From the NCBI GenBank assembly GCA_977017645.1, contig OZ360231.1, forward strand, positions 78,120,001-78,184,000: DNA of 64,000 bases. Reading direction: 5' to 3'. This DNA comes from Torpedo marmorata (taxonomy: Eukaryota). The position numbers and the translations under genes are program-made. Within the stretch, counting starts at the first letter, position 1. The number at the start of each line of letters is the position of its first letter. This document shows, one piece after another, positions 3,475-48,400 of the stretch. The notes beneath the pieces were generated by a model that searched no databases, was not told where the DNA came from, and saw only the letters and a program-made list of their open reading frames with translations.

Positions 3475-3609
3475 GTTTAAGGAGAGCCTAAATGAGCTGC
3501 AAACAGTATGGCGCACAGCTGTGAAATAACATGGCAAAAGCTCAAATACTTGCTTTTGAATTTTTATTGTCAAGTGTACTAGAAACAGTGAAAAGCTTTG
3601 TTTTAGAAG

Positions 3610-4277
3610 TGTTATGGACCATGACTGACCATTTGGACTGCGGACGGTCAGCAGGAAGGACCAGGTACTGAAAGAGTTAACTTGCCCAGGATTGGGTGTG
3701 CTCCCAGATAGAGAGAGACACGGAGAGAGAGACAGGCTGTGGAAAGATACTTTGTTGCACTTTTGCAAAAGCAGGTGCAAAACTCTGCAAAAAGCATTCA
3801 GTTTTTGGAGTTGCAAGAGGCTGGAACAACACAGCCAAATCCAGGCTTGTGCATCCCAGGGGAAAAGGCTGGGAGAATAGCACATGGCCTCCTGTATCAG
3901 CAAAATCCTGAGTTAAAACAACTTTCGTGGAGAACAGGCGTGAGATCAACGAGACCGGCTGTGAGATCCAAGTATACGCCTCAATCTAAAGTGATTTGGA
4001 ATCGCAATCCTCGTGTACCTACCAAAAGGGAAAGTCACCAGAGAAGAAAAGCAGGCCAAGCATTCGTAAGCTTAAACAGTCATTGTCTCTCTCTCCAACG
4101 TACATTAAGAAGTCCTTCGTGCCAGCACACAGAGCTGAATTTGGACCCTGAACATAGAGAGTGATTTTTGTGGTTTGTATTTTTGGGACTGACTTATTTT
4201 TATGACTGACCTGGGGGATTTGGGGAAGGTTTTCCATTTTTACATGAGGGTTGGGCACAGACTGTAATGGTCTGGGC

Positions 4278-4343
<66 letters not shown>

Positions 4344-4487
4344 TTAGATAAGAATAGTGTTTATAAACATTTATAGTGGGGTTAATTGTTGTGAAATTAT
4401 ATATTTAATTGTCTTTAATAAATATAAATTTCAATTTTACCCCTTTTGCATTGCGTCTTCTGTCGTTGCTGGTTTGAAATTGTAACA
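3610..4487 (+). mobile_element. 5' LTR of Gmr1-like Gypsy element
   Basis: TGTTAT...TGTAACA termini. The sequence recurs at 8200-8367, 13217-13446 and inverted at 45303-46211. Followed by a PBS. Confidence 0.9.
4281..4340. repeat. (CA)n microsatellite within LTR
   Basis: About 30 CA units. The same tract occurs as (TG)n at about 45450-45489 in the solo LTR. Confidence 0.95.
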
Positions 4488-4490
4488 AAT

Positions 4491-4508
4491 TGGGGGCTTG
4501 TCCTAGAT
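4491..4508 (+). promoter_or_regulatory. Primer binding site, tRNA-Pro type
   Basis: tgggggcttgtcctagat starts 3 nt after the LTR and matches the tRNA-Pro PBS TGGGGGCTCGTCCGGGAT at 15 of 18 positions. Confidence 0.8.
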
Positions 4509-4616
4509 TAAATCAAGCTCAAGCTTGGTAATTGAAGGAATCCCAGTCTGGTTTAAGACATTCCTTTTGTAAAACTAATTAAAAGCTGTGTGTGTGTAAC
4601 AAAAAAATCAGCAACA

Positions 4617-7600
4617 ATGGATGTGGACATTTTTTTGGAATCACCTGAACCTGATACTTTAAAAAAGGCTAAAAAGGAACAGTTAGTGGCTATAGCAACA
4701 GAGTTGGGCATTGCTTCTGTAAAACCATCTATGAAAAAGGCAGATATTGGGAGAAAAATTGCCAAATACTATATAAAAGGGAAAAGGTTTGAGGAGAGCG
4801 TGTTAGAGCAGTTTCCCAAGGGTAAACCTTCTGAAAACATGCAGTTGGAACAAAAGAGATTAGACAGGTAATTGGAACTAAAGAAATTGGAATTGGAACC
4901 AAAGAGATTAGATTTGAAGGCAGCCAGGGAACAAAAGAGATTAGATTTGGAGGCAGACAGAGAACAAAAGAGATTAGATTTAGAGAGAGAGGAGAACATT
5001 AGGCAATATGAGCTGGAAAAGATTAAGTTGGAAAATGAGAGGAGACAAGAAGAGTACCAAGATCAAATTCATGGTCCTGTTGAGAGGTTTTTGGCCAGTA
5101 GAGAAGTTAGGTTGGTTCCTCCATTTGAGGAGGTGGAAATAGATAAGTACTTCCAACATTTTGAAAAGGTGGCTGTGAAATTAAAATGGCCACAAGACCA
5201 ATGGTCTCTTATGTTACAAAGTGTAATAAAAGGAAAAGCTCAGCAAGCTTATTGTACTCTTACCACAGAGCAAGCTGCTGATTATGAAACGGTGAAAAAG
5301 GCTATACTCCAGGCTTATGAGTTAGCTCCAGAGGCTTATAGACAGAAGTTTAGACATTTAAAAAGATCAGCAACTCAATCTTACACAGAGTTTGCCTATG
5401 AAAAGGTTGTGTGTTTTGACCGGTGGTGCACATCTAAGGTGGTAAACAATAATTACAATCAATTGAGAGAATTGATACTAATTGAGGAGATAAAAAGGTG
5501 TGTTCCTGAGGATATTAAGGCATACTTAGATGAAAAGGTGGTAAAAAATTCTTGCGAGATACTGGAGCTGCTCAGTCACTTGTGTTAGTGTCTTGGAATT
5601 TTGTGAAGCCACTGACACCGATGAAATGAATTTAATTAAAGGAATTGGGGGTGATGTTGAGTCCATTCCTTTGCACAAAATAGTGTTGAACTCAGCCTTG
5701 GTGGAAGGACCTGTTATAATAGGAGTGAGATCAGAGTTGCCAGTAGAAGGAGTCTCACTGTTGCTAGGCAATGACTTGGCTGAGGGTAAAGTAGTTCCTG
5801 CAGTGCGAATGACCACTAAGCCAGTCATTAATAAGTCAGAGAAGGACTCTGATATTTATCCGGCATGTGGCATAACCAGGGCCGTGACTAAGAAAAATGT
5901 CACTGTAGAGAAGGCAGTGGAAAATAAATTGGTGAAAGAAAAAGTCGGTAATAATCAAAAACACCTGGAAAAAGTTGAGCAATCTCCTGTGTTAGACACA
6001 TACACTGATAAGACACCTAAAGGCACTGATTTGTCACTATCCCGACAGGAGCTAATAGCAAGGCAAAAGGAGGATTCTGATCTTGCTGAGGTGATGGATA
6101 AGGTTCTCTCTGAAGAGGAGATTAAGAAGGTGCCAGTAGGTTGTTATGGGAAAAATGGGGTGTTAATGAGAAAGTGGAGACCATGTGATGTTCCTGCCAG
6201 TGAAGAATGGGCAGTAGTGCAGCAGGTTGTGATCCCTAAAGTATATAGGGATGAAATAATAACTTTGGCTCATAGCACACCCTTAGGTGGTCACCTTGGG
6301 GTGAAGAGAACTATACGGAAGATAATGAAACAATTTTATTGGCCCAGTTTAAGAAGGGAGGTTGTAAGCTTTTGCTGGGCCTGTCACACTTGTCAGGTGG
6401 TGGGTAAACCTAATCAGGGTCCCCCGGTGGCACCCCTGCAACCTATCCCTGCTTTCAGTGAGCCTTTCTCGAGACTGTGTTGGCCCATTAGCCAAAACCA
6501 AAGCGGGGAATGAGTATTTGTTAACAATTATGTGTGCAGCCACCAGATTTCTGGAGGCCATTCCTCTGAGAAACATTAAAGCAAAGGCAATTGTAAAGGC
6601 TATGGTAAAATTTTTCACCTTGGTATGTTTGCCAAGGGAAATTCAATCAGATCAGGGTAGTAATTTCATGTCAGGCGTATTCTAACAGGTGGTTGATAGA
6701 CTGGGAGTTAAACAGATTGTATCCTCTGCGTACCATCCAGAAAGTCAAGGAGCCTTGGAGAGGTTCCATTCGACTTTGAAAAACATGATTAGAACCTATT
6801 GTTGTGAGAAATAAATGGATTGGGATGAGGGGGTTCATTTGTTGTTATTTGCAGCGAGGGAGTCTGTCCAAGAATCACTTGGTTTCAGTCCATTCGAGTT
6901 AGTTTTCGGACATGAGGTGAGAGGTCCTTTAAGGTTATTAAAAGAACAGTGGATTAATAGTGATGTGCATTTAAATCTGTTAGATTATGTTTCCAAATTT
7001 AAGGATCAGTTGCATAAAGTTTGTGAGATGGCAAAGGAGACTTTAAAGGCCACTCAACAGAGAATGAAGGGTCGGTATGATCGAAAGGCCAAGATGAGAA
7101 CTTTTAAACCTGGTGAGAACGTGTTGGTTCTGTTTCCCACACATTCAAGTCCTCTGAGGGCTAGATTTTCAGGACCCTATGGTGTTGGGTCAAAAATTGA
7201 TGAGGTCACCTATGTCGTAGAAACGCCTAGTCACAGACGAGACACACAGGTCTGTCATGTGAATATAATTAAGCCATATTTAGTACAGGTGCCGCACAAA
7301 GAGACTGAACATTTACCAGAGGTGCTGGTTATCGACTGGGGTAAGGAGGAGACAGATAAAACCAGTTTCAGAGACGGTCATGGGACTGTTATTTATCTGG
7401 GTTATGTAGTAGGACAGGGGCAGTTGGCGCCAGTAGAGGCAAAAGTTGTGACTATTTCCGAGTTCCCTGTTCCAACTGGTAAGAAAACTCTGAGGAGGTT
7501 CCTGGGAATTATTGGCTACTACCGCAAGTTCTGTAAAAACTTTGCAGCTCTTGCGCTCCCTCTCACAAATTTGCTTAGAAAGGGAGAAAAATTTGTATGG

Positions 7601-8067
7601 TCGATAGGTTGTCAGGAAGCATTTGTCAAATTGAAAGCCATTTTATGCCATCAAACTGTGCTTAAGTCATCTGATTTAGAACAGCCGTTTTCTTTAGCCG
7701 TGGATGCCAGCGATGAAGCTGTGGGTGCGGTGCTGTTACAGAGGAAGAACGAAGAGGACATTGACATTGACATTGACCATCCTACTTCTCGAAGAAGTTC
7801 AATGATCATCAAAGGAATTATTCAACCATAGAAAAAGAATTGTTAGCTCTTGTGTTGGCTCTACAACACTTTGATGTGTATATCTGTACAGCTCAAGAAC
7901 CACTCATAGTGTATTCTGACCATAATCCATTGGTTTTTCTTTGTAAAATGGAAAATAAGAATCGACAGTTGTTGAATTGGAGTCTAATTTTGCAAGAATA
8001 TGATTTAATATTAACACATATAAAAGGGAAAGATAATGTAATCGCAGATTGTCTTTCTAGATGCTAA
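4617..8067 (+). pseudogene. Degenerate gag-pol of Gmr1-like Gypsy (order gag-[PR]-IN-[RT remnant]-RNase H)
   Basis: Gag LVPPFEEVEIDKYFQHFEKVA and AYELAPEAYRQKFR; IN HHCC (HSTPLGGHLG...CHTC), DCVGPL, SDQGSNF and GPY; then YLGYVVGQG and RNase H (AVDASDEAVGAVLLQ, YSDHNPL, HIKGKDNVIADCLSR). Contains stops, frameshifts and a deletion of most of RT. Confidence 0.88.
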
Positions 8068-8199
8068 ACTTTATAAATGAAAATAGTTCATATTTTGTGT
8101 TTGTGGATGAACATTGTGGGTTTTGTTTATATTGTGACACCTCAATTAATTTCCAAAATTTTGTTCTTGCAGACCAAAATTTTCTTTGTGGGTGGGAGG

Positions 8200-8367
8200 T
8201 GTTATGGACCATGACTGACCATTTGGACTGAAGATGGTCAGCAGGAAGGATGAAGTCTTTTGGAGTATACACTGGGACCAGGTATTGAAAGAGTTAACTT
8301 GCCCAGGACTGTGTGTGCTCCCAGATAGAGAGAGACACGTAGAGAGAGACAGGCTGTGGAAAGATAC
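8200..8367 (+). mobile_element. 3' LTR of Gmr1-like Gypsy, 5' part (interrupted)
   Basis: Preceded by purine-rich ggtgggagg (PPT). Matches 3610-3750, and the match stops at ggaaagatac where the BEL LTR begins. Confidence 0.88.
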
Positions 8368-9022
8368 TGTAAGAGCCGTAGGCTCGTTTACTTACCGTTG
8401 TTGCGGCGCTCCGATGTCTTGTCGGGCCTTGGAGCGCCGCGTAGTTGTTGAGGATGTTGCTGGGCCGTCCTCGGCCCGTTTGGAGCGCCGCGTAGTTCTT
8501 GCTGGGCCGTCTTCGGCCCGTTCGGAGCGCTTGCATTGTCTGCGGGCCGCTATCGGCCCGTTCTGTGCTCTGCGCATGCGCTGGAGTGCCGATGGGCGCA
8601 TGCGCAGTATAGAGTGACGTCATTGTGCGCGTGGGAGGCTGGGAATTGTAGTATGCGCGTTGGAGCATGCGCAGAGCCATTAGAGAGAGAGAACAAAGAA
8701 AGGATAGAGATGTATGGGGGGTGAGTCTGGTCTCCACATCTTTATTGACCGTTTTATACCGTTTTATAACTTTTAACATCATCTACAGTGTTTTCATATC
8801 GTTTTGGAATTGTTTAAGGAATAATTTAAAGGAACTCATTATACATCGTTTACAAGAACTGTTTATATTGAGGTCATTGAAGATTACTGCAAGTCATGTG
8901 TGAAAATAAAGGTTTTTGAACATATTGGACTTTGTCAGTAAATTAAATAAAATGCGTCAAAAGCAAGGACCACACTTAGCCTCCAGGTGACTATTGGTGG
9001 AGCGAAGTCACCGTTACTTATA
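8368..9022 (+). mobile_element. 5' LTR of BEL/Pao element (putative)
   Basis: Starts TGTAAG exactly where the Gypsy LTR breaks. Ends CTTATA (one change from the inverted terminus CTTACA). CpG-rich, contains AATAAA and precedes BEL gag. The right boundary is inferred. Confidence 0.65.
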
Positions 9023-9468
9023 GTCAATAAAGGGCTGGCTGTTTGGAACAGAAGTTTGAAGGAAAGAAGATAGAAAAAACTCTCTGTGCTTTGGACTGAT
9101 ATAAATTGGTGGCCATTTTGGAGATGCCTCGAGTTGGGGGCAGTTTGTAATCCACATCCATCTGCCATGAATAACAGCCAGAGAGGGATTTAAAGCTTCA
9201 AATCTTATAATAAAGTGTCCTATAAATACGTTGGAGAAACTATTTTTGGAAAATCAGTGATATTAGTGACGGATGTTGTGGTTGAAACTCGTTTGTGGAT
9301 TGCAGCACATTACAGTCATTTGAAGTGGTGGGCATAAGTCTGTGGACTCCTTCTGTGTATCTTTAGCAAGTAAGAACACAGATTGGAATTGCTGCCGCTG
9401 GTCCATTGGGGACTGTTGTTTGACTAGTGTTGTGTATGCTTGAAGGAAAGAGGAACAAGACGAGTAAA

Positions 9469-12111
9469 ATGGCCGCAGCAGCCACTGATACAGCAGCTAC
9501 TGATTTATCAGCAGCTGACGCAGCAACCGCTGATGTTGCTGTTGAGGACCAACGTATTGAAGACATGAAGGTTGCGGATATTAAAGAAGAATTGAAGCGA
9601 CTGAATAAGGACATAAGTGGAAATAAAAAGGTTCTTATTGAAAGATTGAAGCTGGCAAAGGATGAAGAGGCAGCTTCATTAGTTGAACAAGAAGATAACT
9701 TGGAAATGGCTGAAATTGTGTCAACAAATGATGAACAATTTGAATTGGATAAAGAGGTAAGTATGAAGACAACATATGAACTGCAGGACGAAATACAAGC
9801 AAGTGACAGTGTCTCAAATGCTGAAAGCAGGAGAAGCAAAAGAAGTTCTGGTTCGAGCTCCAGAGTTTCTCGTACTTCAAGTTCTGCATCGTCACGTACA
9901 AGGATTGATGTTAAATTGGCCGCTCTTATTGCACAACAAAAAACGCTTAAGGATAAATATATTTTGGAAGAAGAGGAGGAGCAGCTAAGACAAAAGGAGG
10001 AGCAGCTAAAGGAGCAGCTAAGACAAAAGGAGGAGCAGCTAAAGGAGCAGCTAAGACAAAAGGAGGAGCAGCTAAAGGAGCAGCTAAGACAAAAGGAGGA
10101 GCAGCTAAAGGAGCAGCTAAGACAAGAGGAGGAGCAGCTAAGACAAAATGAGAAACAGCTAAAGGAGCAGCTAAGACAAGAGGAGGAGCAGCTAAGACAA
10201 AATGAGAAACAGCTAAAGGAGCAGCTAAGACAAGAGGAGGAGCAGCTAAGACAAAATGAGAAACAGCTAAAGGAGCAGCTAAGACAAGAGGAGGAGCAGC
10301 TAAGACAAAATGAGAAACAGCTAAAGGAGCAGCTAAGACAAGAGAAGGAGCAGCTAAGGAAGAGAAAAGAACAGCAGGAGCTGGAAGCAAACATTGCTAT
10401 TGCCAAGGCAGAAAAGAAAGCAATAGAAGGCTCAATGGTATCTGGTGCTAGCAGTAAATCATCTAAATTGTCTGATAATAAAAGGTCATATTTAAAAAAG
10501 GAGTCACAGGAAAAGAAACCAACCAAAAGGATAGATATTTTAGAACCAAGGATACAAAACTTACATATACAAGGACAAACCTTTCACGAGCATATTGGTA
10601 TCGAGTCACATGTACCATTAGTAACATCTGAAAGCAAAGCTGCGGCTTGGGTCCGGTCGAACGAAGTAAATTCTTTGTTATATGAGCCAAGCATCAGAAA
10701 TATGGAAGAAACTACACCAGTAAGGTTTCCAGATACATTGCATACAACACGAGACAGTGAACAGAGTAATGTATTGAAATCCAAGGAAAGACAAAATGAA
10801 ATTGCTGCGTCATTGTTTCAGTTACAGTCTCTCTCTTCTTTACCCAAGAAAGAGATACAAACTTTTGATGGTGATCCACTTCAATATCAATCGTTTATGA
10901 GATCTTTCAAACGCAATATTGAAGATAAATGCCAAGATCGTGATGAATGTCTTTATTATTTGGAAATGTTTACAAAGGGACATCCAAAAGAACTGGTTAA
11001 AAGTTGTAACCAAATGTCTTCAGGAAGAGGATTAGACAAAGCTAAGGCTTTATTGGAACAATATTTTGGCAACAAACATCGAATTGCTTTAGCTTATATG
11101 GATAAAGCTCTTAAATGGACATCAATAAAACAAAATGATGTAAAGGCTTTGCAAGAATATACTTTGTTTTTAAGAGGATGTTGTAATGCTATGGAAGAAA
11201 TCGATGGTATTCGTGAGCTTGATGTGCATAGTAATATGCGAATCATTTTAGAAAAATTACCTTACAAGGTATGGGATAGATGGAGAAATTTGGCTTGTGA
11301 TTTACAAGTAAATTATGGTCGAAGAATTACTTTAAAGGATTTGGTAAATTTTCTTGAACGACAAGTGTATGTTGAAACAGATCCACTATATGGAAATACC
11401 AGAGATAATTCAATGAGCAAAGATGTAAGAAAGTCTAATACACAGTTTAGTCCGAAAGTGAAAAGGAGTACTTTTGCTACTAATGTGCAAGTTATAAGTA
11501 AAGAAAAGGACAAAATAAATAAGGAAAAGGAAAGTTTGCCTAATGAAAAGAGTTGTTTGTTCTGTAAAGGTGGACATGCTTTGGAAATGTGTTTACAATT
11601 GGAAAAGAAGGAACATAAGGAAAAGATCGCTTTCTTAAAGGAAAATGGAATATGTTTTAGCTGTCTGTGTAAAGGGCACATCAGTAAAAACTGCGAGAAG
11701 CGAATGAATTGTAATATATGCAATTTGAAACATTCTAGAATTTTGCATGTCCATAACAGAAACAAGGAATTGGAAAAGGAGCAAACAGAAACAAAGGAAA
11801 CAACAGAAAATAATGTTATAACCTCGGTTCAGACAAGTGGTCTTACTGGGGCCGGGGTGAATAACTGCAAACTTTCAATAGTGCCTGTACAAGTTAAGGC
11901 CAAGAAAGGGGATGCAATAGTAAAAACATATGCATTTCTAGACCCAGGTAGCACTGCATCTTTTTGCACGGAAGGACTAATGAATAAACTTAATATTCAA
12001 GGAAGAAAATCAAGAATTATGTTAAAAACCATGGGACAAGAAAAGGTTGTTGAAACTAACATTGTTTCAGGCTTAGAGGTTGCTGGATTGGATGACAAAA
12101 AAATTTTGTGA
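9469..12111 (+). CDS. BEL/Pao gag-protease polyprotein with N-terminal SAP-like motif and coiled-coil repeats
   Basis: Open frame from an ATG in good context (aaaATGg). Contains LPKKEIQTFDGDPLQY (Pao gag), three Cys/His knuckles (CLFCKGGH..C, CFSCLCKGH..C, CNICNLKH..H) and protease YAFLDPGSTASF. Confidence 0.88.
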   Translation: MAAAATDTAATDLSAADAATADVAVEDQRIEDMKVADIKEELKRLNKDISGNKKVLIERLKLAKDEEAASLVEQEDNLEMAEIVSTNDEQFELDKEVSMKTTYELQDEIQASDSVSNAESRRSKRSSGSSSRVSRTSSSASSRTRIDVKLAALIAQQKTLKDKYILEEEEEQLRQKEEQLKEQLRQKEEQLKEQLRQKEEQLKEQLRQKEEQLKEQLRQEEEQLRQNEKQLKEQLRQEEEQLRQNEKQLKEQLRQEEEQLRQNEKQLKEQLRQEEEQLRQNEKQLKEQLRQEKEQLRKRKEQQELEANIAIAKAEKKAIEGSMVSGASSKSSKLSDNKRSYLKKESQEKKPTKRIDILEPRIQNLHIQGQTFHEHIGIESHVPLVTSESKAAAWVRSNEVNSLLYEPSIRNMEETTPVRFPDTLHTTRDSEQSNVLKSKERQNEIAASLFQLQSLSSLPKKEIQTFDGDPLQYQSFMRSFKRNIEDKCQDRDECLYYLEMFTKGHPKELVKSCNQMSSGRGLDKAKALLEQYFGNKHRIALAYMDKALKWTSIKQNDVKALQEYTLFLRGCCNAMEEIDGIRELDVHSNMRIILEKLPYKVWDRWRNLACDLQVNYGRRITLKDLVNFLERQVYVETDPLYGNTRDNSMSKDVRKSNTQFSPKVKRSTFATNVQVISKEKDKINKEKESLPNEKSCLFCKGGHALEMCLQLEKKEHKEKIAFLKENGICFSCLCKGHISKNCEKRMNCNICNLKHSRILHVHNRNKELEKEQTETKETTENNVITSVQTSGLTGAGVNNCKLSIVPVQVKAKKGDAIVKTYAFLDPGSTASFCTEGLMNKLNIQGRKSRIMLKTMGQEKVVETNIVSGLEVAGLDDKKIL
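9975..10360 (+). repeat. Coding tandem repeats, 4 x 33 bp then 4 x 54 bp
   Basis: Encode (KEEQLKEQLRQ)x4 then (EEEQLRQNEKQLKEQLRQ)x4. Confidence 0.9.
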
Positions 12112-13375
12112 TCTTCCAAGTGTATATACTCAGAAGACTATGCCTGTGAACGAAGGAAATATTCCTCATCAAAGTGATATCCATCATTTAGCTTATCTGT
12201 GGAAGGTTTATTTACCTGAAATTAATTCTGAAATAGAAATGCTGATTGGTTCAGATGTGCCAAAGGTTTTGGTACCAAAAGAAGTAATAGAAAGTAAAAG
12301 GAATGGACCTTACGCTATCAGAACCATACTTGGTTGGGCAATCAATGGACCAATGGAAAGAAATAATGATATTGCTCAGGAACAGGTAGCGATAAATGTT
12401 AATAAAATTTCAGTTGAGAAATTTGAAGAGTTAAGAGAAGAGCAAAAAACCGTGAATAAGAAAATCACTTATGAAGAAAAGAAAACAGATCAATGTGAAA
12501 ATAAATCAATGGTATTTAAAACAACATTGAAGGAATTAATTTCGTCAGAAATGGATGAAAGTGAAGTATTAGAAGATGTTGCAAATAATACTATTGATCA
12601 TTCATGTGTAATTGAATCAAATACAGGAATAAAACAAGTGACTGAAAACAAATCTGAATGTAGATTTTGTAGTTCAGAGATTACAACAGACAAAGTTAAT
12701 GAAGAATTATTGCAATGTGATGTAAAACTGGAGAACACAGAAAATTGTGCTGATGGAATAGAGAATAATGTTAATGATAATTTAATGCAATTGAATTCAG
12801 AGAACAAAATGTTGAAAGGAGAATTGGAAATATTAGATAATCAAGAAAACAGTAAACAAAAAGATTTAATTGTAAGTAAAACTCGCAAAGTCAGAAAGCG
12901 GAAGAAAAGAATAACTGCTGATGAAATGAATACAGTTATTGAGGAAAGAGATTCAGCATTATCAAAATGTAAAAGGTTGGAGGAAGAGATTAATGTTTTG
13001 AAAGAGATCAAGTTATTGGTTAATAACACAAAACAGTTAAATTTTAAAACCAATCAAGAATGTAAATTGAATGTTCAACAATTAACAATGCAGAAAGAAT
13101 GTGAAATTGCATTGCAGAAATGTATCAAGCAAGACGAAGAAATTAAAAAATTTCAAGTATGCCGCAACAGGATTGACAATGGAACTATCAATGTATCGCA
13201 TGATATTTTGACTTCAGATTTGGAATCACAATCCTCGTGTACCTACCAAAAGGGAAAGTCACCAGAGAAGAAAAGCAGGCTAAGCATTCGTAAGCTTAAA
13301 CAGTCATTGTCTCTCTCTCCAACGTTCATTATGAAGTCCTTCGTGCCAGCACACAGAGCTGAATTTGGACCCTGA
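12104..13375 (+). CDS. Frameshifted continuation of BEL polyprotein: post-protease region, MIPOL1-like coiled coil, Gypsy-LTR-derived tail
   Basis: IEMLIGSDVP...GPYAIRTILGWAINGP is typical BEL sequence. No RT follows. 12863-13159 resembles vertebrate MIPOL1 and 13217-13375 is Gypsy LTR sequence. Confidence 0.7.
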   Translation, partial: FCDLPSVYTQKTMPVNEGNIPHQSDIHHLAYLWKVYLPEINSEIEMLIGSDVPKVLVPKEVIESKRNGPYAIRTILGWAINGPMERNNDIAQEQVAINVNKISVEKFEELREEQKTVNKKITYEEKKTDQCENKSMVFKTTLKELISSEMDESEVLEDVANNTIDHSCVIESNTGIKQVTENKSECRFCSSEITTDKVNEELLQCDVKLENTENCADGIENNVNDNLMQLNSENKMLKGELEILDNQENSKQKDLIVSKTRKVRKRKKRITADEMNTVIEERDSALSKCKRLEEEINVLKEIKLLVNNTKQLNFKTNQECKLNVQQLTMQKECEIALQKCIKQDEEIKKFQVCRNRIDNGTINVSHDILTSDLESQSSCTYQKGKSPEKKSRLSIRKLKQSLSLSPTFIMKSFVPAHRAEFGP

Positions 13376-13446
13376 ACATAGAAAGTGATTTTTATGGACT
13401 GTATTTTTGGGACTGACGTATTTTTATGACTGACCTGGGGTTTTGG
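13217..13446 (+). mobile_element. Gmr1-like 3' LTR, resumed internal part
   Basis: Matches 3993-~4223 of the 5' LTR (gatttggaatc...ctgacctgggg). Confidence 0.88.
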
Positions 13447-13449
13447 TAT

Positions 13450-18399: not shown

Positions 18400-19465
18400 G
18401 GTAAAAACACAATGCTGGAGTGTTATGGACCATGGACTGACCTTTTGGACTGGCATTATAAAAGATGGAATTCTGCTAAGAACTCTGTGCGACTTGTGCT
18501 GACTCGCCAAGGTCGAGCTGTGCAGACAGAGAGACAATGGAACAGCAGTTGGAGCGGTAGAATGGCAGTTGGAACGGCAGTTGGAGCAGAAGAACGGCAG
18601 TTGGAACGGCAGTTTGGAGCAAAAGTTGGAGCAGCAGAACGGCAGTTGGAGCGGTGAACGGCAGTTGGAGCAGAAGAACGGCAGTTGGAGCGGAAGAGGG
18701 CAGCTGGAGAGCTGTGTGAAATGCGTAAGCTTACTGCAATGCAACATCAGTCATTTCTCTCTCCAACGTTCAATACGACGTCCTTTGTTATCAGTTAAAG
18801 AACTGAACTTGGACATTGAACTTTGAGATTGAATTTTGTGGACTGTGTTTTTTGGACTGACTTACTTGACTGACTGACCTGGGGTTTTGGGGATTTTTTC
18901 CTTTTTGAATATTGGGCACAGACTGTAATGGTCTGGGTTTTTCACATGCACTCTGTTTATAAATATATGATATCTGTATATTTGCTATAGATACTTATAG
19001 TGGGGTTAATTGTGTTAAAACATTATATTGTTAATAGTCATTAATAAATATAGAGTTAAAATTTAACCCTTTTGAATTGCGTCTTCTGTTGTTGCTGGTT
19101 TGAGTTGTAACATGGAGAAACTCAGCAGGTCAAACAGTGTACTTTATATAGCAAAGATAAAGATACATAACCAACGTTTCAGGCTTGAGCCCTTCATCAA
19201 AGTATGGAAAAATGTCGACAGGCGCCAAAACAAAATGCTAACAGGGAGGGGTAGGAGGAGGAACACGGTTCCAAAGGCAGGAGGTAATAGGTGGATAAGG
19301 GAGGGTGTGCACACCAGCAAACAGGGGGAGGAGGGATGCCTCTGTGAATAGAGAGACTGGAGGAAAGAAGACAAAGGGAAAGGGAATGGAGGGAGAATGG
19401 AGAGTAGGCTAGCAGAAACCGGAGAAGTTGATATTAATGCCATCCGGTTGGAGAGTGCTCAGGTG
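18400..19465 (-). mobile_element. Penelope-like 3' terminus, split by a solo LTR
   Basis: gtaaaaacacaatgctggag|...|tggagaaactcagcaggtcaaacag matches the other Penelope ends. Confidence 0.8.
18421..19112 (+). mobile_element. Solo LTR of a related Gmr1-like family, inserted in a Penelope terminus
   Basis: TGTTATGGACC...TGTAACA termini, flanking TGGAG duplication, similarity to 3610-4487 at both ends, and internal gaacggcagttggagc repeats. Confidence 0.85.
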
Positions 19466-44532: not shown

Positions 44533-45447
44533 ACACTGAGGCTCGACACATCAGAAGGAGGCAGAAAGTTCTTCAAGACGCCCCAGGAAGCTGCGGACTT
44601 TGTTCGAGACCTCCCAGGGAGATCCTAAGGTTTGGAGAGAAGAACGAGGAGGAAAGAAGGACTTTGATTGAACTTAAAGTGGGACGCTGGTTAAGAGGGA
44701 TGGTTTTGTTGTCTGTAATAGTATCGTTATACTGAGTTGTGTTATATTGTGTAAATAATGGTTTTTAAGGTAAATAACATAAAGAAGCAAAGAGCCCGGG
44801 GGGAGTTGGGCGGTACAAAGTTAGCTGGTTAGCTAGTTAATTAAGTATGCCAAAGAAGGCATTAAGTGCACCCCGTCTTGAGGGGGTTGATGGCGCCAAA
44901 GGAGTGGGTGTTGTTGTTGGTGCTGGAGCAAGGGGAAGGGATATTTTTGGGGTTTTGTTTTTAGTGTCATCATCAGTGCTGAAGAGATATATATATATAT
45001 TATTGTAAAAAGGGACAGACACACCATAGAAAAAAAATATGCAAAGGGGCTATAAAAGTGGGATAGAACTGTGTATATATTCAAATGAGTAAGACTATAA
45101 GGTTTCTTAGTTTTAATGTTAATGGATTGAACGGACCCATAAAGAGGAAAAGAGTCTTGGCACACCTTAAAAAGCTACAGGCAGATATAGTTTTCTTACA
45201 GGAAATGCATCTTACAAAGCAGGAGCATAGCAAATTAAAAAGAGGTTGGGTGGGGCAGGTAGCTGCATCTTCTTTTAACTCCAAAGCTAGGGGGGTAGCT
45301 ATTGTTACAAAATCAAACCAGCAACGACAGAAGAGGCAATGCAAAAGGGGTAAAATTGAAATTTATATTTATTAAAGACAATTAAACATATAATGCCACA
45401 ACAATTAACCCCACTATAAACGTCTATAAACACTATTCTTATCTAAA

Positions 45448-45492
<45 letters not shown>

Positions 45493-48400
45493 GCCCAGAC
45501 CATTACAGTCTGTGCCCAACCCTCATGTAAAAATGGAAAAACTTTCCCCAAAAACCCCAGGTCAGTCATAAAAACAAGTCAGTCAGAAAAATAATACAGT
45601 CCACAAAAATTCACTCTCTGTGTTCAGGATCCAAATTCAGCTCTGTGTGCTGGCACGAAGGACTTCTTAATGAACGTTGGAGAGAGACAATGACTGTTTA
45701 TGCTTACGAATACTTGGCTTGCTTTTCTTCTCTGATGACTTTCCTTTTTGGTAGAGATTAACGAGGATTGCAACTCCAAATCAGTATACCACTGATTGAG
45801 GCGTGTACTTGGATCTCACAGCCGGTCTCGCTGATCTCACGCCTGTTCTCCACAAAAGTTGCTTTAACTCAAGGATTTTGCTGAGACAGGAGGCCATGTG
45901 CTATTCTCCCAGCCTTTTTCCCTGGGATGCACAAGCCTGGATTTTGCTGTGTTCTCTAGCCTTTGCAACTCCAAAACTGCCACTGAACCTCAATGCTTTT
46001 TGCAGAGGTTTGCACCTGCTTTTGCAAAAGTGCAACAAAGTATCTTTTCCACAGCCTGTCTCTCTCTCTCTGGTTTCTCTCTCTCTCTGGGTACACCAAG
46101 TCCTGGGCAAGTTAACTCTTTCAGTACATGGTCCCAGTGTGTACTCCAAAAGACTTCATCCTTCCTGCTGACCGTCCGCAGTCCAAATGGTCAGTCATGG
46201 TCCACATAACACTACCTTAATAAATAAAAATGTTCCGGTGGTGGTTGGGGACACAGTTGTTGACTCGGCAGGAAGATATGTGATGGTACATTGTCAGATT
46301 TACTCAGAACCCTGGACACTCTTGAATCTTTACGCACCAAATTTTGATGACGAGTCATTTATGCAGGATATTTTTTTGAGAGTGACAGGAGGACGACAAA
46401 ACGTTTTGATTGGTGGGGATTTTAACTTCTGTCTGGATCCCATTCTGGATAAATCGGCAAAGACAGTTAAGAAAGCAAGGGCGGCTAAAACAACCTTGGC
46501 TTTCATGAAAGATTTAAACCTAATAGATGTATGGAGTCAGTTGCTCCCTCAAGCGAGAGACTACTCCTTTTATTCAAAGCCCCATGATTCCTACACCAGA
46601 ATTGACTATTTCCTGATGTCTGCACAATTAGAAGGCAGAGTGACTGAATCGGAATATCAAGCCAGACTTTTATCGGACCACACGCCTTTGATTTTGTCTA
46701 TGGTAATGCCAGATAAACAAGCTAATGCGTACAGATGGCGCCTTAATTCTACGCTGTTGAAAAGACAAGATTTCTGTAGTTTAATAAGGGGTCAAATAAG
46801 TTTGTTTTGCAAATCAAACTGACCCTCTATTAATAATAGTTTTCTAATATGGGACACATTGAAGGCGTATTTAAGGGGGCAAATAATTTCATACAACAAA
46901 AGTGTCAAGAAAAAATATATGGCGGAAATAAACAATTTGGAAGGGGAGATTTTAAAATTGGAAAAGGAATACCAACAGTCGGGATCGAAAGAAAAATATC
47001 AAACTTTGGTAAATAAGAAACTTAAATATAATACTTTACAAACATACAAAACGGAGAAGGACATTTTAAGATCCAAGCAGAAATTCTACAAATTAGGGGG
47101 AAAAGCACATAACGTTTTGTCTTGGCAATTGAGGACAGAGGAGACTTCGAGGACAATTAATGCAGTTCAGTCGGAACCGGATAAGATATCGTACAATCCA
47201 AAAGAGATCAATGACACTTTTAAACAGTTTTATGCAAAATTGTATGAGTCAGAGTCACCAAGTGGCTCAACTAAAATAGATAAGTTCTTGTCCACGATTG
47301 AATTGCCAAAGTTGGACCAGGAGGATCAGATGGAATTAGATGCCCCATTCTCCGAAGAGATCGAAAAAGCCTTGGGTTCTCTACAGGCGAATAAATCGCC
47401 GGGAGAAGATGGTTTCCCTCCTGAGTTCTACAGAGAGTTTAAGGATCTTTTGATGCCTCTTATTATGAATGTAGTTAACCAGGCAGCGGAAACACGGACT
47501 CTCCCGGAATCCTTTTCAACAGCTATTATTACGGTTATACCAAAGAAAAATAGAGACTCATTAAAACCTTCTTTATACAGGCCCATTTCATTATTAAATG
47601 TGGACTACAAAATAATAGCCAAGGCATTGGCTAATAGATTGGGTCAATATTTACCAAATTTGATAAATTCAGACCAAGATGGTTTTATTAAGAAGAGACA
47701 CTCGGCCAACAATTTGGGCAGACTATTTGGCACAATCAAAGGCAGACCCAAGTATAGCCGTGTATTTGGATGCAGAAAAAGCTTTCGATAGGCTGGAATG
47801 GCCTTTCTTATTTAAAGTACTGGAGAAATTTGGATTGGGGGAATCATTTATTAATTGGGTAAGAATGCTCTATTACAAACCTCGGGCCAAGATCATTACG
47901 AATGGCCAGATATCGTCGACATTCCCCTTAAGTAGGTCCAGCAGACAGGGTTGTCCACTGTCTCCAGGTCTTTTTATCTTGGCAATTGAGCCACTGGCAG
48001 ACTCTATTAGACGGGACCCAGACATAAAAGGATTCAGGGTGGACCAGGTGGATCATAAAATTAATTTATTTGCAGATGATATGCTGTTGTTTTTGACAGA
48101 CCCTGCCGAGTCCTTGGCCAGGTTGCAGACCACACTGGAAGATTACGGCATGATTTTGGGTTACAAAATCAATTTAGAAAAAAGTGAGATCATGCCGTTG
48201 ACAAAATTTGATTACGGGGAATATCAACAAAGGAGTCGTTTTAAATGGGAACCAAATGGTATTAAATATTTAGGAATAATGATAGATAATAATTTGCAAA
48301 ATTTGTATAGACTTAACTACCTCCCTATGCTTGGAAAGATTGAAGACGATTTACTTAGGTGGAGGAACCTGCCCATTACTCTAGTGGACAGGGTGAACTG

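Follow-up and report, generated by a model that had tools for sequence, protein, structure and literature searches.

A BEL/Pao retrotransposon family of Torpedo marmorata with an in-frame cassette of three host genes, including a MIPOL1 piece most likely derived from a circular RNA

Introduction

Host coding fragments carried in a defective, helper-dependent long terminal repeat (LTR) element are familiar from retroviral oncogene transduction (v-onc). The maize LTR element Bs1, which carries fragments of three host genes, and HERV-K FAM8A1 share this layout and are both cited by Tan et al. (2016, PMC5131818), who described LTR-mediated retrocopies formed by template switching, among them a chimera of two genes in the Pao element BATUMI and one instance in BEL18_AG. 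Also close are the circRFWD2 pseudogenes of mouse, with 33 high-confidence and 9 low-confidence copies of a circular RNA (circRNA), whose mechanism was called unresolved in the original report (Dong et al. 2016, PMC4897178). The present work concerns a 64,000-nucleotide (nt) stretch of the genome of the ray Torpedo marmorata (GCA_977017645.1, contig OZ360231.1, positions 78,120,001 to 78,184,000, forward strand; hereafter the window), for which an initial annotation had proposed that a BEL/Pao element captured a segment of the host gene MIPOL1 in place of its reverse transcriptase (RT). The element is read here as one copy of a BEL/Pao family whose cassette derives from the host genes BRCA1, MIPOL1 and Elongin A, with MIPOL1 sequence likely copied from a back-spliced circle by template switching and a spread that was probably aided by helpers; a probability of roughly 0.85 is given to this reading.

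As judged from the portions of these reports covered here, the ray family resembles the retrocopies of Tan et al. in that partial spliced RNA replaces part of an internal open reading frame, both LTRs are kept and multi-gene chimeras occur, the inserts being in sense, often in frame and subject to further rounds of retroposition (PMC5131818). The signs used in that report, spliced host RNA in place of coding sequence, discontinuity of the element and crossed exon junctions, are all found in the ray family, the last of them in three genes. With the circRFWD2 pseudogenes it shares a non-colinear exon junction marking a circRNA source, the absence of poly(A), many copies from one circle and association with an LTR element, MMERVK10C-int in a supplement legend (PMC4897178); the signs relied on by Dong et al., a non-colinear junction at splice sites and no sequence from exons outside the circle, are likewise present. 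Unlike the mouse copies, for which the covered text gives no element anatomy (PMC4897178), the ray family numbers about 20,000, belongs to BEL/Pao, includes two further host genes, is fused in frame to Gag-protease, has an identified helper and forms a long open-frame lineage. The main text of Tan et al. contains neither 'circular' nor 'Rfwd2', and its examples are young with few insertion sites (PMC5131818), whereas the ray family had one likely circular template, became a dominant repeat and changed its backbone. From Bs1, FAM8A1 and v-onc it differs in showing no sign of peptide conservation, in lacking an envelope, in being a vertebrate BEL/Pao element and in its permuted exons. Already known, therefore, are LTR-mediated multi-gene capture, including in Pao/BEL elements (PMC5131818), and circRNA-derived copies beside an endogenous retrovirus in mouse (PMC4897178); new are a piece of most likely circRNA origin in a resolved three-gene in-frame cassette, together with its helper and intermediate forms, a copy number about 500 times higher, and selection for the frame over a long lineage. 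No description of the ray family was found in the literature outside subscription journals and bioRxiv supplements.

The Host-Gene Cassette

The window element is a non-autonomous member of a BEL/Pao family in which RT, RNase H and integrase have been replaced by a host-gene cassette lying in the Gag-protease frame. The peptide singled out by the initial annotation corresponds to 12863-13159 on the plus strand, within a stop-free frame at 12077-13375, and the stretch given there as MIPOL1 is contained in library protein P0063. The assignment to MIPOL1 was confirmed by a protein search, in which all 10 matches scored (from 227 candidates) were annotated as MIPOL1, the best being that of Narcine bancroftii (64% over 102 amino acids, E 4.8e-27); the DNA of the segment is 78-80% identical to the MIPOL1 exons of T. 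marmorata itself, and older copies of the cassette reach 95-96% identity to the host exons. The segment is coiled-coil-like and the Pfam copy used had no MIPOL1 model, so that a chance coiled-coil likeness, a normal BEL domain or an L1-type processed pseudogene in a single element could be imagined, but these have a negligible probability. Shuffles preserving the heptads (500 runs) gave a maximum score of 90, against 321 for the observed MIPOL1 alignment, which together with the DNA identity to the host exons rules out a coiled-coil artefact; full-length helpers carry RT at the position of the cassette, across which the BEL sequence is discontinuous by about 3.2 kb, so the segment is no standard part of a BEL polyprotein; and poly(A) is missing from the joints.

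Several details of the earlier description needed revision. The piece does not end at 13159 but continues to 13216, its last 49 nt coming from an earlier exon, and the open frame past 13216 belongs not to the element but to a Gypsy 3' LTR joined to it by a deletion. A Pfam scan of both window frames returned no match to RT, RNase H or integrase; the lack of RT in the window does not on its own demonstrate replacement, because the deletion removed the 3' end of the BEL element, and the replacement is visible only through the sister copies, which do support a non-autonomous element with host MIPOL1 in place of RT. Positions 12441-12869, earlier taken for BEL sequence, are a piece of BRCA1, and MIPOL1 is one of three captured genes rather than the only cargo.

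The full order of the cassette in older copies is BRCA1 (80% amino acid identity to Narcine, E 2e-75), MIPOL1 and Elongin A (PF06881, E 7.7e-16; 89% amino acid identity). The best matches of all three pieces are Narcine proteins, and the host genes of T. marmorata differ from those of N. bancroftii. MIPOL1, Elongin A and BRCA1 are located on contigs C40, C41 and C61, respectively, and queries from the non-captured parts of MIPOL1 and BRCA1 found one genomic place each. Mapping onto the host exons showed that the MIPOL1 segment spans two host junctions (Table 1), the BRCA1 piece three in older copies and one (12554/12555) in the window's subfamily, and the Elongin A piece four, the last two genes being colinear with the host. 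All the pieces are in sense and in their native frame, continuous with the protease in unbroken copies. The joints, compared in 13 stretches, showed neither poly(A) nor a long duplication, the hallmarks of L1; at the young left joint helper and BRCA1 have 6 nt in common, and at the BRCA1-MIPOL1 joint 2 nt are shared.

Further observations concern individual pieces. About 20 nt of linker separate MIPOL1 from Elongin A in old copies; the old LTR begins with the same 10 bases as this linker, the last bases of which are similar to two sites in Elongin A exon 4. Two copies (L155 4627-4819 and L156 4390-4582, oriented) carry a second left joint, in which the BEL linker is followed by N-terminal Elongin A (exons 3-4) and then BRCA1, in frame, which implies that Elongin A RNA entered twice or that an Elongin A-only ancestor existed. 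Three codons that open the large exon of BRCA1 in the elements and in Narcine are missing from the host gene (C61 25488548), so that the elements preserve an older allele. The old cassette covers what we take to be the region of the Elongin B/C-binding box, and the young family is without it. Among 75 protein representatives, neither BRCA1+MIPOL1 chimeras nor permuted MIPOL1 were found (0 and 0; 42 were colinear), and no chimeric protein occurred among 10, 8 and 37 protein matches of the captured genes; both negatives are weak, repeats often being unannotated.

The Permuted MIPOL1 Exons and Their Source

Host MIPOL1 has nine exons with AG/GT borders spread over 320 kb, each found once. Exons B to H measure 136, 106, 130, 34, 171, 108 and 95 nt, 780 nt in total, and as a circle they start and end in the same phase and are free of stops. 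The captured order is F-G-H followed by B-C-D; in a genome search with Narcine MIPOL1, the host large exon was returned together with dozens of sites in which residues 437-553 are directly followed by 295-385. In old copies the piece forms one ordered block at circle positions 454-1040, as against two out-of-order blocks on a linear model. In 19/19 host-like loci exons H and B meet without an intervening base, H complete to its end and B beginning at its first base as set by the upstream AG of a tandem acceptor; MIPOL1 of Hypanus and Pristis carries an extra residue, which would be the product of that upstream acceptor. None of 29 stretches (25 distinct loci) reaches more than 3 nt into exons A or I, and a query from the C-terminal 101 amino acids matched the host gene alone. 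The exact host-type H|B junction, as a 20-mer, occurs 239 times in the genome (control 0). In sequencing runs from four different organism codes, contigs of X2 and X4 span the H|B joint and contigs of X2, X5 and X7 the BRCA1-MIPOL1 joint; depth is 3-10 in X4 and X5 and X7 may be RNA, so that these contigs bear neither on species range nor on transcription. Because the H-B joint lies exactly on host splice sites and exons B to H make a stop-free 780-nt circle, the source of the piece was most likely a circRNA. The captured RNA is intronless and in frame, as had been proposed, but an ordinary messenger RNA (mRNA) is an improbable source, the exon order being permuted at splice sites.

A linear RNA could have yielded the same order by a backward jump through AG|C, from a trans-spliced or exon-repeated transcript, or from a lost genomic tandem duplication of B-H. 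Such an origin is very unlikely: only 3 of the 28,735 position pairs that share a 3-mer on the linear model are exon-boundary pairs, so a random microhomology jump would rarely strike two of them; the host exons are single in the 320 kb examined; the one duplication known to have arisen at the DNA level breaks inside exons; nothing from exons outside B-H is present; and an exonic circ-Mipol1 has been reported in mouse, its exons not being stated in the text covered. Several points nevertheless weigh against a circle copied by template switching. The 3-nt match AG|C is common to both boundaries of the linear mRNA, and several template switches built the element anyway, so that a double jump is unlikely but possible; trans-splicing yields an identical H-B joint, indistinguishable by sequence; less than one round of the circle is present and hence gives no proof of rolling-circle copying; the intron pair flanking B and H has no excess of inverted repeats between its members over five other intron pairs; microhomology at the BRCA1-MIPOL1 joint amounts to just 2 nt, with about 20 unplaced nt at the MIPOL1-Elongin A joint; and the parent back-spliced RNA is, for T. 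marmorata, a proposal drawn from DNA. The circle remains the preferred source.

Capture of more than one round of the circle, hinted at by long protein matches, was rejected at the DNA level. The internal tandem duplication of the MIPOL1 piece referred to above is found in one old copy (L107). The introns of host MIPOL1 (C40 64.32-64.64 Mb) hold four cassette-bearing elements, one with both LTRs between exons D and E, where about one would be expected at average density.

Helpers and Copy Number

A DNA search with the window copy gave 40 scored hits from 531 candidates, all 98-100% identical over 777 nt. Twenty whole copies, drawn from 30 loci chosen for closeness to the window and therefore young, had LTR pairs 97-100% identical in 19 cases, exact 5-bp target duplications in 17 and a single frame of 1,225-1,373 codons in 18. 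Past the start of exon B, where the window copy is broken, the sisters continue through exon C and pieces of Elongin A to a stop, beyond which lie what is left of the integrase C-terminus (PF18701, E 6.6e-7) and the 3' LTR.

The corresponding full-length elements were sought through PF05380, with 150 of 6,618 candidates scored; 9 of the 14 Pao copies fetched, mostly for their long frames, have frames of 2,018-2,134 codons. PF05380, PF18701, RVT_1 and rve were found in both helpers scanned and PF03564 in one, RVT_1, rve and PF03564 lying below the curated cut-off; both helpers thus match Pao peptidase, RT, integrase and DUF5641. The young backbone is 93-94% identical to these helpers before the cassette, as is the Gag-protease DNA of sister L031, and mostly 95-96% after it; in young copies about 3.2 kb of the helper, comprising RT, RNase H and most of integrase, is swapped for 1.1 kb of cassette. 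The old backbone is about 72% identical to today's helper. Old copies have LTRs ending in CA, and young copies and their helpers have TG...TA ends, TG...CA being usual for LTR elements. From the shared LTRs, and the identical LTR pairs in both, it is likely that the family has been mobilized in trans by full-length helpers of the same genome. By eye, no obvious TGG-type primer site was seen 3' of the 5' LTR (window 9022; L031-L050, L122-L130). A transfer RNA scan of the whole window found no transfer RNA. At two places (L159 and C1 1498296-1518170) elements form head-to-tail arrays of 3 and 5, apparently sharing LTRs.

Exact words of 19 nt were counted over the genome, each with a control of 0: the MIPOL1-piece word occurs 19,798 times (one being the host exon), the protease word 18,687 times and the word for helper RT/RNase H, present in 14/14 helper candidates, 2,929 times. 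The cassette is thus multi-copy, the family standing at about 20,000 copies and the cassette outnumbering helper RT about 7 to 1; exact words miss old copies, so the first figure is a floor and the ratio approximate. In a sample of 40 taken at fixed steps through the first 100 listed cassette hits on contig C1, all were elements, with BRCA1 in 40, H|B in 37, Elongin A in 37, gag of more than 500 nt in 38 and RT in none; a frame of at least 1,000 codons was present in 11. On a 15.9-Mb stretch of the same contig, denser than the genome average, 77 of 98 protease hits pair with a cassette hit, and of the 21 unpaired ones 20 were inspected, 18 of them having a mismatched cassette and 2 breaking off inside the protease. 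A cassette-free non-autonomous form was found at none of the 97 protease-bearing sites of that stretch, the cassette being present at 95.

History of the Cassette

In a tree of 61 rows, a selection from the available loci with a midpoint root for drawing, the host exons fall among 14 old copies and the others form one ladder ending in the window's subfamily. Identity to the host drops as LTR pairs become more alike (Spearman -0.61, p 0.0013; 25 sampled copies, 15 of the 40 having been left out for lack of a usable LTR pair or full piece). Along this one lineage the cassette drifted about 20% from the host, from 95% to 79% identity, and shrank from about 2.0 to 1.1 kb with most of Elongin A lost. 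Since the old backbone is so much less like today's helper than the young one (about 72% versus 93-94%), the cassette was probably carried onto a newer helper backbone at least once. Old copies match the T. marmorata state at 23/24 Narcine-derived sites and at 2/7 host-derived changes, which points to a capture after the split from Narcine and early on the host's branch; the numbers are small, and one of the two changes rests on 2/3 copies. A one-codon loss in exon G that is shared with Narcine had suggested a link to that genus, which was rejected, the elements siding with T. marmorata at those 23 sites.

Selection on the Open Frame

Between the host and 10 unbroken young copies, the synonymous divergence (dS) is about 0.3 and the ratio of nonsynonymous to synonymous divergence (dN/dS) is 0.60-0.72 over about 350 codons. 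Neutral simulation under the observed mutation spectrum, dominated by G to A, C to T and C to A, gave a mean of 12 stops, no stop-free run in 3,000 and dN/dS of 0.54-1.09, so that the observed ratio, below 1, is within the neutral range, whereas the observed number of stops is 0. The number of amino acid changes and their BLOSUM score are like those of neutral runs (p 0.24 and 0.40). Base-matched comparison of 0-fold and 4-fold sites over the whole cassette gave odds ratios of 0.51 (p 0.016), 0.71 and 0.77, the latter two not significant, and for MIPOL1 alone the test was not significant in 3/3 copies. For Gag-protease against the helper, dN/dS is 0.37-0.58, with the site test significant in 1/3 copies. 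Insertions and deletions common to at least 3 of 53 copies (6 of 59 having been left out as short or poorly aligned) are multiples of three in 3/3 cases within the cassette versus 4/24 after the stop (p 0.012); among those of single copies the count is 21/73.

Because no stop is seen where about 12 would be expected and the amino acids are near-neutral, selection appears to act on the frame, and on the peptide weakly or not at all. This conclusion is tempered by the shared-indel test consisting of 3 events only and by the one copy in three with some amino acid constraint over the whole cassette (odds ratio 0.51). Stop-free divergence had been taken as a hint of family spread or selection: spread and a frame kept open are borne out, significant amino acid constraint on MIPOL1 is not. 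The analogy with retroviral oncogene capture breaks down at the same point, the purifying selection expected of a v-onc type of functional transduction not being seen in the MIPOL1 piece.

Why the frame is open may be considered from the position of the stop. The common stop lies 422 nt before the 3' LTR, and that of the helper 205 nt before; a stop right after the protease would add about 1.5 kb of untranslated sequence, and a long untranslated stretch is a known trigger of RNA decay. On this ground the cassette may be a read-through filler that keeps the RNA stable or packageable, an explanation of the open frame held at somewhat better than even odds, its RNA-stability step being a proposal. 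That the captured peptides form an accessory protein, the MIPOL1 coiled coil aiding co-assembly with helper particles or the Elongin A piece recruiting host factors, would agree with the sense orientation and native frame of all pieces, with dN/dS below 1, with the significant 0-fold deficit in one copy and with the lack of a cassette-free form at the 97 sites; it is, however, unlikely, given ratios, change numbers and BLOSUM scores that match neutral runs, MIPOL1 tests without significance, and a young family that dropped half of the cassette, including the Pfam Elongin_A region. A role of the cassette as RNA, its host homology giving shelter from small-RNA silencing, which would also hit BRCA1, MIPOL1 and Elongin A, or its length suiting packaging, is quite unlikely. 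The excess of cassette over RT copies, survival through backbone exchange and the missing cassette-free form are in its favor, but host identity fell from 95% to 79% during family growth, the host-like junction remains in 239 copies versus about 20,000, and the missing stops are left unexplained; furthermore, non-autonomous elements often outnumber helpers without any host DNA (PMC5131818). More broadly, it is possible, at odds clearly below even, that the cassette is a working part of the element whose advantage (RNA protection, silencing shelter or accessory peptide) explains its retention through backbone exchanges and in every non-autonomous copy sampled, as well as its excess of about 7 to 1 over the helper.

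Proposed Mechanism

Anatomy, host exon maps, permuted joint, copy counts, helper identity, a single ladder-like lineage and an open frame are observed, and the following course would account for them. Host RNAs, among them the 780-nt circle of exons B-H, would have been co-packaged in BEL particles, where RT would have switched template from BEL to BRCA1, to the circle (587 nt, across the back-splice), to Elongin A and back to BEL. The phase symmetry of the circle would have let the permuted piece remain in frame. The chimera, retaining both LTRs and Gag-protease, could then have been mobilized in trans; later recombination with newer helpers would have renewed the LTRs, gag-protease and 3' end, and in-frame deletions would have shrunk the cassette. 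Source elements would need translation up to a stop near the 3' LTR, the cassette serving as the filler to be read through, and the MIPOL1-derived peptide would have little or no sequence-specific role.

Anatomy and Context of the Window Copy

The features of the window copy are collected in Table 1.

Table 1. Features of the BEL/Pao copy and its surroundings in the window.
Feature	Position	Strand	Remarks
5' LTR of BEL/Pao element (TG...TA ends)	8368..9022	+	87% to LTR of sister L031; doubled in sisters with 5-bp target duplications
Gag-protease frame: SAP domain, tandem coiled-coil repeat (9923-10429), Cys/His region, aspartyl protease	9424..12111	+	ends at frame break
Protease end and BEL post-protease linker, second frame in window copy	12077..12440	+	
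Captured spliced BRCA1 piece	12441..12869	+	window 53% amino acid identity, E 9e-42; older copy E 2e-75
Captured MIPOL1 exons F(part)-G-H	12863..13167	+	host exon junctions 12967/12968, 13072/13073
Non-colinear joint, MIPOL1 exon H end to exon B start (back-splice-type)	13167..13168	+	
Start of MIPOL1 exon B	13168..13216	+	
Rest of 3' LTR of surrounding Gypsy element	13217..13448	+	96% to 3993-4216
Decayed Gypsy: 5' LTR 3606-4487, SCAN-bearing gag, RNase H, first part of 3' LTR 8196-8367	3606..8367	+	context

The copy is a broken member of its family, with a frame break near 12095-12111. Its insertion point, at 8368, falls within the Gypsy 3' LTR (LTR sequence at 3606-3751 matches 8196-8368, and 3993-4216 matches 13217-13440), and a deletion with its breakpoint at 13216, where 3 bases are shared, cost the BEL element its 3' end and the Gypsy LTR 241 bp. 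All 29 other fetched loci diverge from the window at this breakpoint and continue with a common 1.3 kb.

The SAP domain at the Gag N-terminus (PF02037, window 9556-9651) is also carried by helpers, and the coiled-coil region is a variable 12/21/33-nt repeat that is the main source of length variation among copies. In the Gypsy element, the SCAN domain is PF02023, and integrase-like motifs, judged by eye, lie upstream of RT/RNase H, an order presumably like that of Gmr1-like elements. Related LTR pieces also occur at 45302-46213 and 18748-19112.

Implications

In a VGP catalog of retrocopies, MIPOL1 is the first named of the five most retrocopied genes in cartilaginous fishes, and 95.7% of the retrocopies are species-specific; its lists are read there as formation bias plus selective filtering, and retrocopy numbers are tied to non-LTR elements (bioRxiv 10.64898/2026.06.26.734816). 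The main text of the catalog mentions neither BRCA1 nor Elongin and does not use the word 'circular'; a link between its MIPOL1 count and the ray family is likely, and the family may explain this rank. Other top parents listed there (SUDS3, SDF2L1, SLU7 and ZNF276 in cartilaginous fishes, PIWIL2 and DND1 in amphibians) may likewise be cargo of transposons. The tally of retrocopies for a gene can reflect transposon amplification rather than expression or selection, which bears on the MIPOL1 entry.

On the reading given here, circRNA retrocopies would gain a concrete route of formation, by co-packaging with template switching within an LTR element, a point left open in the 2016 report, and the cassette would preserve a single back-splice event in fossil form, including which acceptor was used. 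A single capture would have given rise to about 20,000 copies, likely of the order of 1-2% of the 6.2-Gb genome (an estimate from the count times 4-6 kb). With its frame open and its amino acids near-neutral, the family provides a natural setting in which to test why reading frames persist in defective retroelements. Thousands of BRCA1- and Elongin A-derived copies also make small-RNA cross-talk with host genes directly testable, and should the cassette prove advantageous to the element, a load of about 20,000 transcribable copies of sequence from BRCA1, MIPOL1 and Elongin A could bring those three host genes under cross-regulation.

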